A stretch of DNA of 38,451 bases from Clostridia bacterium (GCA_021205485.1 JAJPXK010000128.1:1-38451); one strand, 5' to 3'. Counted from the stretch's first letter, positions 6,232 through 28,789 are shown. The notes: a model not told the origin generated them from the sequence alone. Numbers and translations are program-made.

Positions 6232-6474
6232 TTACGGTTTGAGCCATATATAGGCCAAAAGAAACATCAGAAGCCCTACGACGATTATTATCCCTATTAC
6301 GGGGGCGAACGCCGCGAAGGCGCCGAGCATCATCTTGCGCTGTTCCTTTTTGCTTATCTTTTCTTGCTTGTCTTTATCCTTGCGGTGAGGGTTATACCAC
6401 CGCATGCCCTCTACGTTCATATCGGCGAACGTGGTTTCGGTGTCAAGCTCGTCGTCTTTACGCTTTCGCCGCAT
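6232..6474 (-). CDS. Small single-pass membrane protein with a polybasic/acidic N-terminal tail
   Basis: The ATG at 6474 has an AGGGGA RBS 5 nt upstream. The ORF-track start at 6510 is a TTG without a clear RBS. The C-terminal TM segment is LGAFAAFAPVIGIIIVVGLLMFLLAYIW. The gene overlaps the end of the upstream ATPase gene by 17 nt. Confidence 0.5.
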   Translation of the reverse strand: MRRKRKDDELDTETTFADMNVEGMRWYNPHRKDKDKQEKISKKEQRKMMLGAFAAFAPVIGIIIVVGLLMFLLAYIWLKP

Positions 6475-7675
6475 CGGTGTCCCCTGCTTTGTTCTCTTTT
6501 TCCGCCGCAAGCTTTAAAGCGGCTTCGGCCTGCTCCTTTTCAAGGCGGGCGTATTCCGCGTTCTCTTCCTCGGTATTGTAGAGGTGGCAGGCGCAGAAGT
6601 GCCCCTCCTCCACTTCCTTATATACGGGATCGAACTTGGAGCATATATCCATACAGCTTTCGCAGCGGGTATGGAATTTACAGCCCTTAGGAGGATTTAC
6701 AGGCGAGGGTATGTCGCCCTTTAAGATGATTCTGTTCATCTTTACGTGAGGGTTAGGCACGGGTACGGCGGAGAACAGGGCCTTGGTATAAGGGTGAAGG
6801 GTATTGTCAAAAATCCTCTCCTTAGAGCCGTATTCTACCATACTGCCGAGGTACATAACGCCTACGTCGTCGGATATGTGCTTTACAACCGACAGATCGT
6901 GCGAAATAAAGACATAAGTAAGCCCGAGCTCTTCCTGAAGCTCTTTAAGCATATTTATAATCTGCGCCTGGATAGAGACGTCCAGCGCGGAGACGGGCTC
7001 GTCGCAGATAACCAGTTCGGGCTTTAACGCGAGCGCCCTGGCTATACATATACGCTGCCTCTGCCCGCCCGAAAATTCATGAGGGTAACGCCCGTAATAA
7101 TGCGACTGCAGGCCGCACATCTTCATTACGTTTAAGACGTATTCCTGGTAATTTTCTTTGGTGCAAAGCTTATGGTGCAGGGCCGCCTCGCCTATTATCG
7201 CGCCTACCGTAAGACGGGGGGATAAACTTGCGTAAGGGTCCTGGAAAATCATCTGCATATTAGGGCGGAGTTTGTTGAATTCGCCCTCTGAAAGGGCGGA
7301 AACTTTTTGCCCTTTAAACCATACATCGCCGCCTGTGATGTCGTAAAGGCGTAAAACCGTTCTGCCCATAGTGGTTTTGCCGCATCCGCTTTCGCCTACT
7401 ATGCCAAGAGTCTTGCCCTTTTTTACTTTAAACGAAACGCCGTCCACCGCCTTTAAAAAAGCCGTAGGCTTGCCTAAAAGGTTTTTGTCCGTAACGAAAT
7501 ATTTTTTTAAATCCACAACCTCTAACAGGGGATCTGTCTCGGGGTCGTAAGGGCGGGTTTCGTACACCTGCCCCTTGCGGGTTTTTACCGTTTTTTCAGG
7601 CTTTTCTTCGGATATAACCCCGCCCGCGGGAGTTCCGGCGGTTTCATCGGTTAAGTTTTTAACTGTTTCTTCCAT
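6458..7675 (-). CDS. Opp/Dpp-type peptide ABC transporter ATP-binding protein (OppF-like) with N- and C-terminal extensions
   Basis: Walker A GESGCGKTT, signature FSGGQRQR, Walker B LVICDEPVSALD. The oligopeptide C-terminal domain with Cys motifs is present (CKFHTRC..C...C). GAGGAG RBS. The gene overlaps the upstream ATPase gene by 17 nt. Confidence 0.9.
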   Translation of the reverse strand: MEETVKNLTDETAGTPAGGVISEEKPEKTVKTRKGQVYETRPYDPETDPLLEVVDLKKYFVTDKNLLGKPTAFLKAVDGVSFKVKKGKTLGIVGESGCGKTTMGRTVLRLYDITGGDVWFKGQKVSALSEGEFNKLRPNMQMIFQDPYASLSPRLTVGAIIGEAALHHKLCTKENYQEYVLNVMKMCGLQSHYYGRYPHEFSGGQRQRICIARALALKPELVICDEPVSALDVSIQAQIINMLKELQEELGLTYVFISHDLSVVKHISDDVGVMYLGSMVEYGSKERIFDNTLHPYTKALFSAVPVPNPHVKMNRIILKGDIPSPVNPPKGCKFHTRCESCMDICSKFDPVYKEVEEGHFCACHLYNTEEENAEYARLEKEQAEAALKLAAEKENKAGDTDAAKA

Positions 7676-27300: not shown

Positions 27301-28789
27301 AGGCGTATCTCGCCATAATGCCGACTATGCCGCCCGTAAATATGCCGCCCGTCACCGTTATATCGGTGGCGACGTTGTTGAGTATGTATATAGGGGCCGA
27401 TTCTGCGTAAGGCATAGCGTATGCGCAAAGGCCGCCCGCTCCGTATATTATGCCCGTGCCGCTTACGGTTATATCGGATATAGTGTTGTACTGCATAGAG
27501 GTGTTGTACACGTAGCCGTAGTCTTCGTCAACGTAGGACTGAAGTATGCCTACAAGGCCGCCCGCGTACGAATAATAGCTGCTGTTGCCCGTAACCGTAA
27601 CCGTTCCGTTTTCGGCGGAGCAGTTTATAAGGTTAAAGCCTACCGCGTAGCCTACTATGGCGCCGGTGACGCACGCCCCGCTCGCGGGGGCCGTTCCCTC
27701 TATGGTAAAGTTTTTGATAGTTAAATTCTGTATTACGGCCGATACGCCCGAATACGCCGAGCATACGCCGAACAGGCCGAGATAGCTTGAATATTCGCCG
27801 TCAGAGCCCGAAACTTCGTTTGTAAGCACGAAGTTAGACATCGTTTTGCCGTTGCCGTTGAAGTTGCCCATAAACACCGAGTAGTCAGAGTCGTACCCGT
27901 TGCCTATTACGTAAGCTTCCTCCCCTTCAAAGTCAAGGTCGCAGCCAAGCTGCCAGTAAGCGGTGTTCCGGTCTAACGAAGTGTAGTAATCTTTATTGTT
28001 TATATAGCTTGCAAAATAAAGCCAGTCGGTTATGGTGTTTATTGTATAGGGGTTTGACGCGGTACCCGTACCCGTTATGGCTATAGAACGGGTCTGCACG
28101 TTGCTTACCCAGATTATGATATCGCCGTCGGAAGTCGCCATATCGCTGTCCACGGTAAATGTATACACCCCGTCAGAATCGGGGGTAATGGTCTCTTCGC
28201 CGTTGATTTCCACGACAGGATATTCAACGATAACGTCATTGCTGTTTGCTATATATTCGCAGTAAACGCTCTTTTTTACAGTGAAAGAGACAATATCGCC
28301 AACCTGTACGGTGTCGCCGTCTTCAACGTTTACGGTAAAGTCGCTCGCAGACGTTACGGCGGTGTACGTTACGCCTACCTCTATGTAAGAGCCTGTATTT
28401 TCGTCGGTCTCTATATCGCCGTCGGAATCGTACCTGTAATAAGAAAATTCAATGTTATACGTCGCGGCGGAAGAGCTGTCGTACCCGCAGACCGAACATA
28501 AATCGCTGCCGTCTTCGTAAATATGCTCGCTGTAGCCCCTGGTGGCTTCGCTGTGGCCGCACGTAGAGGAGTACCAGTGGCCTACGCTGTCATACGTGTA
28601 TGCAGAGGAAAACGTATGCGTGTGCGTTTCGCCGCAGTCGGAGCATACATACACGTAGTTGCCGTCGCTGTCCAATTCTTCCGTGGCTATCCATGAGTGA
28701 GTGTGGTTCGTACCGCCGAAAAACGCGGCGACGCACGATACAAAAACTACGGATAGTATGGCGATTAAATATTTTTTTACTCTGTTCAT
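24398..28789 (-). CDS. Giant secreted or anchored GLUG-motif beta-helix protein with an N-terminal Cys/His-rich module and many lipocalin-like GxYT(F/Y) repeats
   Basis: AAGGAAG RBS. N-terminal hydrophobic anchor YLIAILSVVFVSCVAAFF. GLUG-type motifs: YAGGLVGIL, GAGGLCAYA, FTGGIVGIMA, YGGGIVGYAG. The cap is ASNPYTINTITDWLYFA...FNGNGKTMSNFVL. The C-terminal two-thirds carries repeated G(T/K)YT..dg.l.f.. modules. Confidence 0.85.
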   Translation of the reverse strand: MNRVKKYLIAILSVVFVSCVAAFFGGTNHTHSWIATEELDSDGNYVYVCSDCGETHTHTFSSAYTYDSVGHWYSSTCGHSEATRGYSEHIYEDGSDLCSVCGYDSSSAATYNIEFSYYRYDSDGDIETDENTGSYIEVGVTYTAVTSASDFTVNVEDGDTVQVGDIVSFTVKKSVYCEYIANSNDVIVEYPVVEINGEETITPDSDGVYTFTVDSDMATSDGDIIIWVSNVQTRSIAITGTGTASNPYTINTITDWLYFASYINNKDYYTSLDRNTAYWQLGCDLDFEGEEAYVIGNGYDSDYSVFMGNFNGNGKTMSNFVLTNEVSGSDGEYSSYLGLFGVCSAYSGVSAVIQNLTIKNFTIEGTAPASGACVTGAIVGYAVGFNLINCSAENGTVTVTGNSSYYSYAGGLVGILQSYVDEDYGYVYNTSMQYNTISDITVSGTGIIYGAGGLCAYAMPYAESAPIYILNNVATDITVTGGIFTGGIVGIMARYASVQNAYVTGVISASSTYTSGAGDYEDTVLDLRYAYGGGIVGYAGNDTYLGSSYFNGEVNASSSTTGDYAFSGSLYGGYSAAGYETYYSLALTLRNNLHDNASEENSATRSQLLAAGWNEEDWNLNGDYPVIISSTLSYTYTITVNVDGATYSQTDISTENTATSSLMYIPMSYRYLLGDSGATGGLNIYIRSGNKRTYGYYFDEGLTERIPAGYVITGDITIYAKYVDCSPILNKEYYVSGNGVTATITFEASGTYTYEQGAIYLTGTYEYDGQTITFKNGYFSRFAGPYYETSGTGSSATTTTVTITDNQASSYYDFFAYIGDDGNIYIYDCDEYYVDTYSDDYDYLARFFAKNNPLAAICEENVAFAGKYYDDSGNIYYFDIDSTGTYTSGTGGSIAYSFDDDGTLTVELVEAGREYTATIENNKIIYLTNTINGSVINLYAYDDFEGAWIQGGIVPVTYTFDGKGGWTYADGSSSDSGKYTIENDVLSFTLTDGTAVTVTINEDGTLSFKKTSGTQAVTYFAENSLAGVWYTYANAISRYTLTLGGINADGWGEAEFEGTTGFRYCVNEETKTSVELYMYYGDTLYGTLTYDLATGILTGVIDSTTYTFYMYDDFYGAWVGSSDDFALIVFNGFGMYDVAYAGTGTRAVNGSATITDVSKNSTKVTYTVDAATGVASFTYNNVVYTLVYDAFTGEIAVTGEDGSAIRLAAQDEFADVVFIVNGVYYTFDGRGYLGGGVVTITDGATPSTATYTVSDDGTIYITGGMTAAIQLTDSGYVMEIGDNSFDVIVENDFSGTYAVYGQYIQITIGATGFILENGVTIEGAYGDESVTFTYNDGILSFASGDVTYYITSAYNGLILSTTEDYTEDSANAYITEVGEIFGSWTNGTVTFTFDGTAGSDVVSYGSVKMTSGDTTVTGRYYVSDGVYTVLLSGGVTYTFTISDASSEGAYTNGTLYLVPVTAS

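Follow-up and report, generated by a model that had tools for sequence, protein, structure and literature searches.

In Bacteroidota, polysaccharide utilization loci (PULs) bring together binding proteins and a hydrolase at the cell surface with a dedicated importer, and the same combination is found in Porphyromonas with RagAB and the gingipains. In lactic acid bacteria (LAB), the cell-envelope proteinase PrtP (lactocepin) and the oligopeptide importer OppABCDF form a comparable system, whose genes are not linked, as had been stated in the original prediction on the DNA analyzed here. In Lactococcus lactis SK11, prtP and prtM are carried by one plasmid and oppABCDF2 by another (PMC2827410). 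The DNA analyzed is a stretch of 38,451 nucleotides (nt) from a Clostridia bacterium (GCA_021205485.1, JAJPXK010000128.1:1-38451), which is called the window throughout this text. Between positions 6232 and 28789 it contains nine open reading frames (ORFs), all co-directional on the minus strand (ORF calling over the whole window). They encode a surface protein of 1463 amino acids (aa), a giant subtilase of the S8 family with leucine-rich repeats (LRRs), a lipoprotein, a family-5 solute-binding protein (SBP), an OppBCDF-type importer and a small membrane protein. We lean towards reading this block as a conserved modular locus by which a clade of uncultured gut Clostridia acquires extracellular protein in the form of peptides.

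The gene sizes, the gene order, the junctions and the closing hairpin that had been predicted for the block were borne out by the ORF calls and domain matches. The gene for the 1463-aa protein, which is secreted or anchored (24398-28789), is followed after a spacer of 102 nt by the gene for the membrane-anchored S8-LRR protease of 2696 aa (16205-24295). The latter overlaps by 8 nt with the gene for the 580-aa lipoprotein, a member of an uncharacterized family (14470-16212), and a gap of 41 nt leads to the SBP gene (11693-14428, 911 aa from the ATG). After an expanded, repeat-filled spacer (11130-11692), the genes for an OppB-like permease (10125-11129, 334 aa from the ATG at 11129) and an OppC-like permease (8997-10115, 372 aa) lie 9 nt apart. 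The OppD-like ATPase (7659-8993, 444 aa) comes 3 nt further on, and its gene overlaps by 17 nt with that of the OppF-like ATPase (6458-7675, 405 aa), which also overlaps the gene for the small membrane protein. A terminator-like hairpin at 6199-6220, likewise on the minus strand, closes the block with a 9-bp stem that includes six GC pairs and a T-rich tail. Co-transcription within the block is presumed.

The conservation of this arrangement was examined in a species-level sample of 80 loci, one genome per species, which were scanned by tblastn with the window proteins. The sample comprises metagenome-assembled genomes (MAGs) of Clostridia (Candidatus Coproplasma, Candidatus Scatosoma, 'Christensenellaceae', CAG:475 and others) from the gut of ruminants, chicken, rabbit, mouse and human. 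SBP homologues of about 820-950 aa (n = 688) came without exception from Clostridia MAGs. Six relatives with 46-66% SBP identity show the order of 1463-aa protein, S8-LRR protease, lipoprotein, SBP, OppBCDF and small protein, and this order is kept in L007 and L008 despite changed flanking genes. Over the whole sample, the lipoprotein gene lies upstream of the SBP gene in 70 of the 73 evaluable loci, the OppBCDF set is complete in all 57 evaluable loci, and the small protein follows OppF in 44 of 57, including a clade in which the protease is missing. Among the 63 loci that have a full upstream flank, 49 show linkage of the S8-LRR protease, which lies 47 times upstream on the same strand and twice downstream of OppF. 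For a reverse search, we used the family-specific middle region of the protease as query against metagenome contigs. SBP and Opp genes adjoin the protease gene in 43 of the 45 loci that could be evaluated (42 downstream, 1 upstream) and are absent in the remaining two. Since about 50 species share the arrangement, whichever of the two directions is searched, it goes beyond what chance would produce. It had been considered that the surface genes might be a recent, unrelated insertion next to opp. This was rejected, because synteny is conserved in relatives, down to about 40% SBP identity and through rearrangements.

The rearrangements themselves are informative. The protease gene has shifted downstream in one clade and lies downstream of OppF in L058, L060 and L130, and the position of the 1463-aa gene varies by clade: it is found either upstream of the S8 gene or, in 21 loci, downstream of Opp. 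In 19 of these 21 loci the downstream orthologue, full-length with 1338-1459 aa, directly follows Opp or the small gene. A neighborhood that is kept through rearrangement is a stronger sign of a functional link than a fixed gene order alone. The 14 loci without a protease fall into a single clade of the SBP tree, in which a homologue of the 1463-aa protein was likewise not found within 10 kb, and the remaining genes sit between the his operon and IMPDH/guaA. Because one whole clade has neither protein at this locus, the block can be divided into two parts. The lipoprotein, the SBP, OppBCDF and the small membrane protein are the universal core. The accessory part is a pair, S8-LRR protease plus 1463-aa protein, whose members are gained, moved or lost together and otherwise stay nearby.

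The protease consists of a signal/anchor, an I9-like propeptide, an S8 domain with a protease-associated (PA) insert, fibronectin (Fn)-like domains, a Big_2 domain, an LRR_5 array and a transmembrane (TM) helix. Its Pfam match to Peptidase_S8 had an E-value of 7.6e-40, and multiple LRR_5 units in seven stretches (E 4.7e-124) make up an array of the BspA type; Big_2 was matched as well, and the I9 propeptide weakly. The PA insert and the following Fn-type domains that characterize cell-envelope proteinases (CEPs) are present: the PA match of the window protein, at 20.8 bits, is just under the cut-off of 23.9, the orthologous proteases gave clear PA matches (PF02225), and fn3_5 (PF06280) was found in the L008 and L009 orthologues. 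D235, H314, S723 and the oxyanion residue N461 are invariant in 50 of 50 sequences (the window protein and 49 orthologues). A catalytically dead S8 domain, which would have spoken against the original prediction, was rejected on this ground.

The best matches of the protease among PDB sequences are C5a peptidase, SpyCEP and CspA (E 3.7e-48 to 1e-37). The alignments with SpyCEP and C5a peptidase span the catalytic domain, the PA insert and the first Fn-like domain and reach residue 977. In NCBIfam, we obtained partial matches to an LPXTG serine peptidase family and to the HupY/LrrG adhesin. The C-terminus of the protein is a TM helix with an RRRK stop-transfer sequence, and this TM anchor is conserved; an LPXTG cell-wall anchor is present neither in the window protease nor in most of its orthologues. 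The description of the enzyme as CEP-like thus holds for the protease core and not for full membership of the LPXTG-anchored family. Ahead of the TM anchor there is often a Gly/Cys motif (TGCGSITSGGG in the window, 16205-16330, minus strand; GCGGC, GCAGCG or GCNGC elsewhere), which could be an unrecognized sorting or acylation signal.

In five species, the S8-LRR protease and the lipoprotein are encoded by a single ORF (L013 1433-9964, L015 1267-9960, L018 1286-9961, L024 1256-9964 and L031 1171-9966). The fused proteins are 2844-2932 aa long and continue in frame beyond the TM anchor of the protease, where a short loop of basic character and another TM helix lead into the lipoprotein domain. 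With this TM hairpin, the two large domains would both lie outside the cell. The same fusion is visible on the partial contig L021. Throughout the fusion subclade, including the unfused L019, L025 and L050, the lipobox Cys has given way to a plain TM anchor. Because the whole subclade has lost this residue, the fusion is an evolved state and not an assembly artefact. The union of the protease and the partner lipoprotein of the SBP in one polypeptide in some species suggests that the two act side by side, and they are probably located together.

The importer has the composition of the Opp/Dpp (PepT) family, with two permeases, one of them with OppC_N, and two ATPases with oligo_HPY. OppB matched BPD_transp_1 (E 8.9e-36), OppC matched OppC_N (E 3e-13) and BPD_transp_1 (E 1.8e-36), and OppD and OppF each matched ABC_tran along with oligo_HPY. 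The ATG start of OppB is accompanied by a GGAG ribosome-binding site, and its orthologues have 331-337 aa. The ABC domain of OppD extends over 213 residues, compared with 137 positions of the profile, with an insertion of about 70 aa that is not in OppF; the translation of OppF shows a Cys cluster at the C-terminus.

The SBP, a family-5 (cluster C) lipoprotein according to its SBP_bac_5 match (E 1.8e-26) and its lipobox ITGC, adopts the cluster-C fold in an AlphaFold2 (AF2) model (pLDDT 73, pTM 0.70). It carries a mostly helical insertion of about 220 aa at residues ~200-420 (13170-13830 in the window, minus strand), which is conserved throughout the family of 820-950 aa, including the clade without protease. 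Its Foldseek neighbors include NikZ, AppA, NikA, MppA, DppA and OppA, among others, at about 11% identity and TM-scores to the targets of 0.68-0.77. As neighbors at this level of identity span many ligand classes, the ligand is not fixed by the fold alone. The best sequence match in PDB is AppA of Bacillus subtilis (E 1.7e-10) and the best match in NCBIfam is Opp4A, both of which are peptide binders. From these matches and from the conserved protease neighbor we infer that the SBP is probably specific for peptides.

The three other proteins of the block are harder to place. The partner lipoprotein has the lipobox FAGC, and no Pfam or NCBIfam family was matched by its 580 aa, including any that would mark it as a PrtM-type (PpiC/PrsA-like) maturation lipoprotein. 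An exhaustive profile search assigned 331 representative clusters to its family at E<=1e-30, typically of 410-460 aa. Word-indexed searches, with a single sequence or a 6-sequence profile, gave 6-7 matches, the Ser-rich linker having probably swamped the word filter; the lipoprotein counts given here rest on the exhaustive profile search and on tblastn of the fetched loci. The conserved part comprises residues ~240-575. Residues 78-125 form a Ser/Asp-rich linker, and it is this linker together with an insertion that makes the window protein longer than the family norm. The AF2 model (pLDDT 63) is beta-rich and confident for residues ~370-520 only. A Foldseek comparison of the model with PDB gave nothing at E<=0.001; the weak fold matches were to beta-solenoid adhesins, pectate lyase and ubiquitin-like repeats. 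The conserved C-terminal part of the lipoprotein has a GNG.T.SN motif in common with the 1463-aa protein (pairwise E 1e-5).

In the 1463-aa protein, this motif is found in a beta-helix-like region, which lies between an N-terminal signal/anchor with a Cys/His-rich segment and C-terminal lipocalin-like (DUF5640-like) repeats. A search of PDB sequences with the beta-helix-like region returned nothing meaningful, and the sole Pfam match of the protein was to DUF5640, at an E-value of 0.001 below the cut-off. The protein had been labeled as a GLUG protein. This label is weak, since there is no match to Pfam Glug (PF07581) even at E<=10 and the orthologues show 'faint' precomputed matches only; PF07581 itself is carried by one distant match of the lipoprotein profile. 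The block had also been said to contain two extra giant adhesin-like proteins. For the lipoprotein and the 1463-aa protein, neither a family nor a significant fold relative was matched, and the latter has no solved relative either. The Cys/His-rich segment (residues 29-105; 28475-28705, minus strand) directly follows the signal/anchor and contains the motifs HTHSW, CSDCGETHTH, CGH and CSVCG. It may be an extracellular zinc-ribbon-like module, for which Pfam gave a hint to Zn_ribbon_SprT at an E-value of 0.15 only.

The small protein with one TM helix is a real gene and might contribute an additional transporter subunit. No family match was found for it, and its orthologues could be aligned (for example L004 17518-17760 and L006 17286-17525). 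The ORF in the window extends over 6232-6510, and the start most likely is the ATG at 6474, which gives a protein of 80 aa (6232-6474). The window protein contains the motif LDTETTFADMNVEG.RWY.P...KKEQRKM, then the TM helix and AYIWL. Over the aligned orthologues, the conserved form is LDTETTFADMNVEGF.WY.P...SRKEQRKM.RGAF, followed by the TM helix and a final AYLWL.

Two spacers within the block deserve attention. In the 102 nt that separate the 1463-aa gene from the S8 gene, there is a hairpin at 24359-24393 with a 9-bp stem, followed by a T-rich tail (CAUCCUUUUAU on the minus strand). Its fold energy is -19.6 kcal/mol (z -2.5), and the scan flags the hairpin on the plus strand. From its sequence, it is a possible intrinsic terminator or attenuator. 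The promoter and terminator scans ran at background frequency and were relied on solely for the hairpins named here. The 533-nt spacer between SBP and OppB consists of copies of an intergenic repeat that is dispersed and rich in hairpins, and this spacer folds far better than shuffled sequences (z -6.6). The repeat families in it (D4, D5, D11 and D16) have more copies elsewhere in the window. The corresponding spacer has a median length of about 52 nt and a maximum of 256 nt in 62 related species, which makes the window an outlier. Given this short median in the relatives, the long spacer is a lineage-specific repeat insertion rather than an ancestral operon boundary. Between malE and malF of E. 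coli, repetitive extragenic palindromic (REP) elements stabilize the upstream message, and by analogy the repeat might stabilize the SBP message here. The repeat resembles REP elements or miniature inverted-repeat transposable elements and occurs in many intergenic regions, with units such as CGTCATTGCGAGCG and TCTCGCGGGTACCCGCGG. Copies were located at 5172-5212, 11413-11438, 11544-11671, ~29270-29330, 30995-31026, 31120-31196, 34079-34147, 34251-34275 and 37159-37190, and a listed ORF at 31110-31589 starts within one of them.

The block is flanked by housekeeping genes (RuvX, DUF1292, serine dehydratase, TilS and ilvBN). At 590-5056, the window encodes the alpha chain of serine dehydratase, a protein of about 270 aa without family and a Fer4-redoxin/AhpC fusion protein. 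The outer neighbors of the block are common to the downstream flanks of L002, L004, L006 and L009; the flanks differ in L007 and L008. Because several relatives share these neighbors, the chromosomal setting is conserved within the subclade. A search of the window against Rfam gave no known RNA such as a riboswitch or T-box, a scan of the window for CodY boxes gave matches at chance level only, and no regulator was found in the block.

How might these parts work together? The LRR and immunoglobulin (Ig)-like region of the protease, and perhaps also the beta-rich 1463-aa protein, would bind macromolecular protein at the cell surface, for which dietary, host-derived or particle-bound protein would be candidates. 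The S8 domain would cut the bound protein into oligopeptides close to the membrane. The enlarged SBP, aided by its partner lipoprotein, would then capture the peptides and pass them to OppBCDF for ATP-driven import. That the protease, the surface proteins and the importer are kept as one conserved cluster suggests that protein breakdown and peptide uptake are coupled in these Clostridia. A machine for substrate capture, proteolysis and uptake was also the core of the original prediction. The conserved synteny, the intact catalytic triad and the fusion speak for it; what has to be corrected is that the protease and the 1463-aa protein are accessory and not universal. A more elaborate version of this scheme is possible, although we regard it as doubtful. 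The protease and the lipoprotein might dock on the helical insertion of the SBP in a membrane-tethered complex, so that peptides would pass directly to the importer, and the small TM protein may be an extra transporter subunit. If true, such a docked complex would be a Gram-positive, ABC-based counterpart of the SusCD 'utilisome' of Bacteroidota, working on protein.

Several observations weigh against the acquisition of protein as peptides. A whole clade retains the importer core without any protease within 10 kb, which means that the importer is not strictly dependent on this protease. In the window, the stretch from the 1463-aa gene to the S8 gene contains a possible terminator, and the structured, repeat-filled spacer parts SBP from OppB. 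There is no obvious amino-acid auxotrophy: ilvBN is in the window, and in relatives the core has a his operon next to it. Among solved structures, the protease is closest to virulence-type enzymes of narrow substrate range, and the fold neighbors of the SBP bind nickel, sialic acid, glutathione and pectin as well as peptides. Finally, the lipoprotein and the 1463-aa protein match no known family and have no significant fold or structural relative. Some of these points would be explained if the locus were a module for interaction with a host or partner, in which a specific target of host or microbial origin is bound and cleaved by the S8-LRR protease, the 1463-aa protein serves as an adhesin and Opp, only co-regulated or just a neighbor, takes up none of what the protease releases. 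The kinship with C5a peptidase, SpyCEP and CspA, the partial NCBIfam matches to the LPXTG serine peptidase family and the HupY/LrrG adhesin, the size of the LRR_5 array, the possible terminator and the clade that keeps the importer without the protease are all compatible with such a role. However, the ranking towards virulence enzymes is biased because PDB contains no solved lactocepin. Moreover, the S8 gene stays beside SBP and Opp in 43 of 45 loci on the protease side, also through rearrangements, and it overlaps with, or is fused to, the gene of the lipoprotein that partners the SBP. We consider this explanation unlikely.

It is also conceivable that the protease has no nutrient role at all and processes or sheds the locus's own lipoprotein, SBP or 1463-aa protein. 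Surface-protein processing by subtilases has precedents, the protease is closely tied to the lipoprotein, in some species by fusion, and it is lost together with the 1463-aa protein. Yet an LRR/Ig substrate-binding region of about 1100 aa would be needless for processing neighbors, and a whole clade keeps lipoprotein and SBP functioning without the protease, so that surface maturation seems rather improbable to us. We give similarly little credence to an importer of non-peptide substrates such as peptidoglycan fragments, glycopeptides, oligosaccharides or metal chelates, which the beta-helix-like surface proteins would bind. Here the many ligand classes among the fold neighbors of the SBP, at about 11% identity, its unusual 220-aa insertion and the faint resemblance of the lipoprotein and the 1463-aa protein to beta-helix proteins, pectate lyases or serine-rich repeat proteins have to be set against three other facts: the best sequence matches of the SBP are peptide binders, the sole conserved enzyme of the locus, a protease, has its active site intact, and Pfam scans of the block proteins detected no glycoside hydrolase or lyase domain. 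In Phr signaling of Bacillus, extracellular subtilases (subtilisin, Epr, Vpr) cooperate with the Opp importer Spo0K. This precedent and the small conserved gene within the locus raise the idea that the protease matures a secreted pro-peptide that Opp re-imports as a quorum signal. However, neither the block nor the blocks of relatives contain an RRNPP-type receptor or regulator, the small protein differs from a Phr precursor in its C-terminal TM helix and the lack of a signal peptide, and the giant LRR region would be left unexplained, all of which makes signaling very improbable.

Read as a locus for acquiring protein as peptides, the block resembles the PrtP/lactocepin and OppABCDF system of LAB in several respects. 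In both, the S8 protease is surface-anchored and contains a PA insert plus Fn-like domains, the importer belongs to the Opp family and has a lipoprotein as its SBP, and the proposed logic is alike, with protein converted to oligopeptides that are then imported. The differences are considerable, however. The genes are unlinked in Lactococcus and form one conserved block here, there is no PrtM-type foldase, and a TM helix takes the place of the LPXTG anchor. The C-terminal half of the protease is a BspA-type LRR array, the SBP is about 350 aa larger, and three more conserved uncharacterized genes belong to the block. The streptococcal CEPs (the C5a peptidases ScpA/ScpB, SpyCEP and CspA) are similar in sequence over the catalytic, PA and first Fn region. 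In contrast to the protease described here, they are LPXTG-anchored virulence factors with narrow host substrates that have no LRR_5 array and are not encoded with Opp. The LRR_5 array and the partial HupY/LrrG match recall the BspA-type LRR proteins, such as BspA of Tannerella and HupY/LrrG of group B Streptococcus, but the array is the C-terminal part of a protease here and not a stand-alone adhesin.

With the PULs and with RagAB and the gingipains, the likeness is in concept only, as there are no homologous parts. The envelope is of the Gram-positive type and served by an ABC importer instead of a TonB-dependent transporter, and Pfam scans found no SusC/SusD-like pair of domains in any ORF of the block. 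Our literature search, whose coverage was incomplete so that an earlier description is possible, brought up neither this cluster nor any protease-Opp operon. Both the parts and their logic are already known, and the overall function is as the LAB paradigm would predict. New are the operon-level wiring, the LRR-bearing and TM-anchored CEP, the oversized SBP, the three uncharacterized partners and the protease-lipoprotein fusion.

The bacteria that carry the cluster are uncultured Clostridia which are common in the gut of ruminants, birds, rabbits and humans. A giant protease tied to a dedicated importer predicts that these bacteria feed on protein at the cell surface, and the ligand of the SBP and the substrate of the protease are concrete targets for testing this. 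For three uncharacterized families (the partner lipoprotein, the 1463-aa protein and the 80-aa membrane protein), the locus provides an annotation by genomic context. Compared with the LAB paradigm, in which protease and importer are unlinked, it illustrates that their coupling can become fixed as one heritable module, even to the point of a gene fusion.

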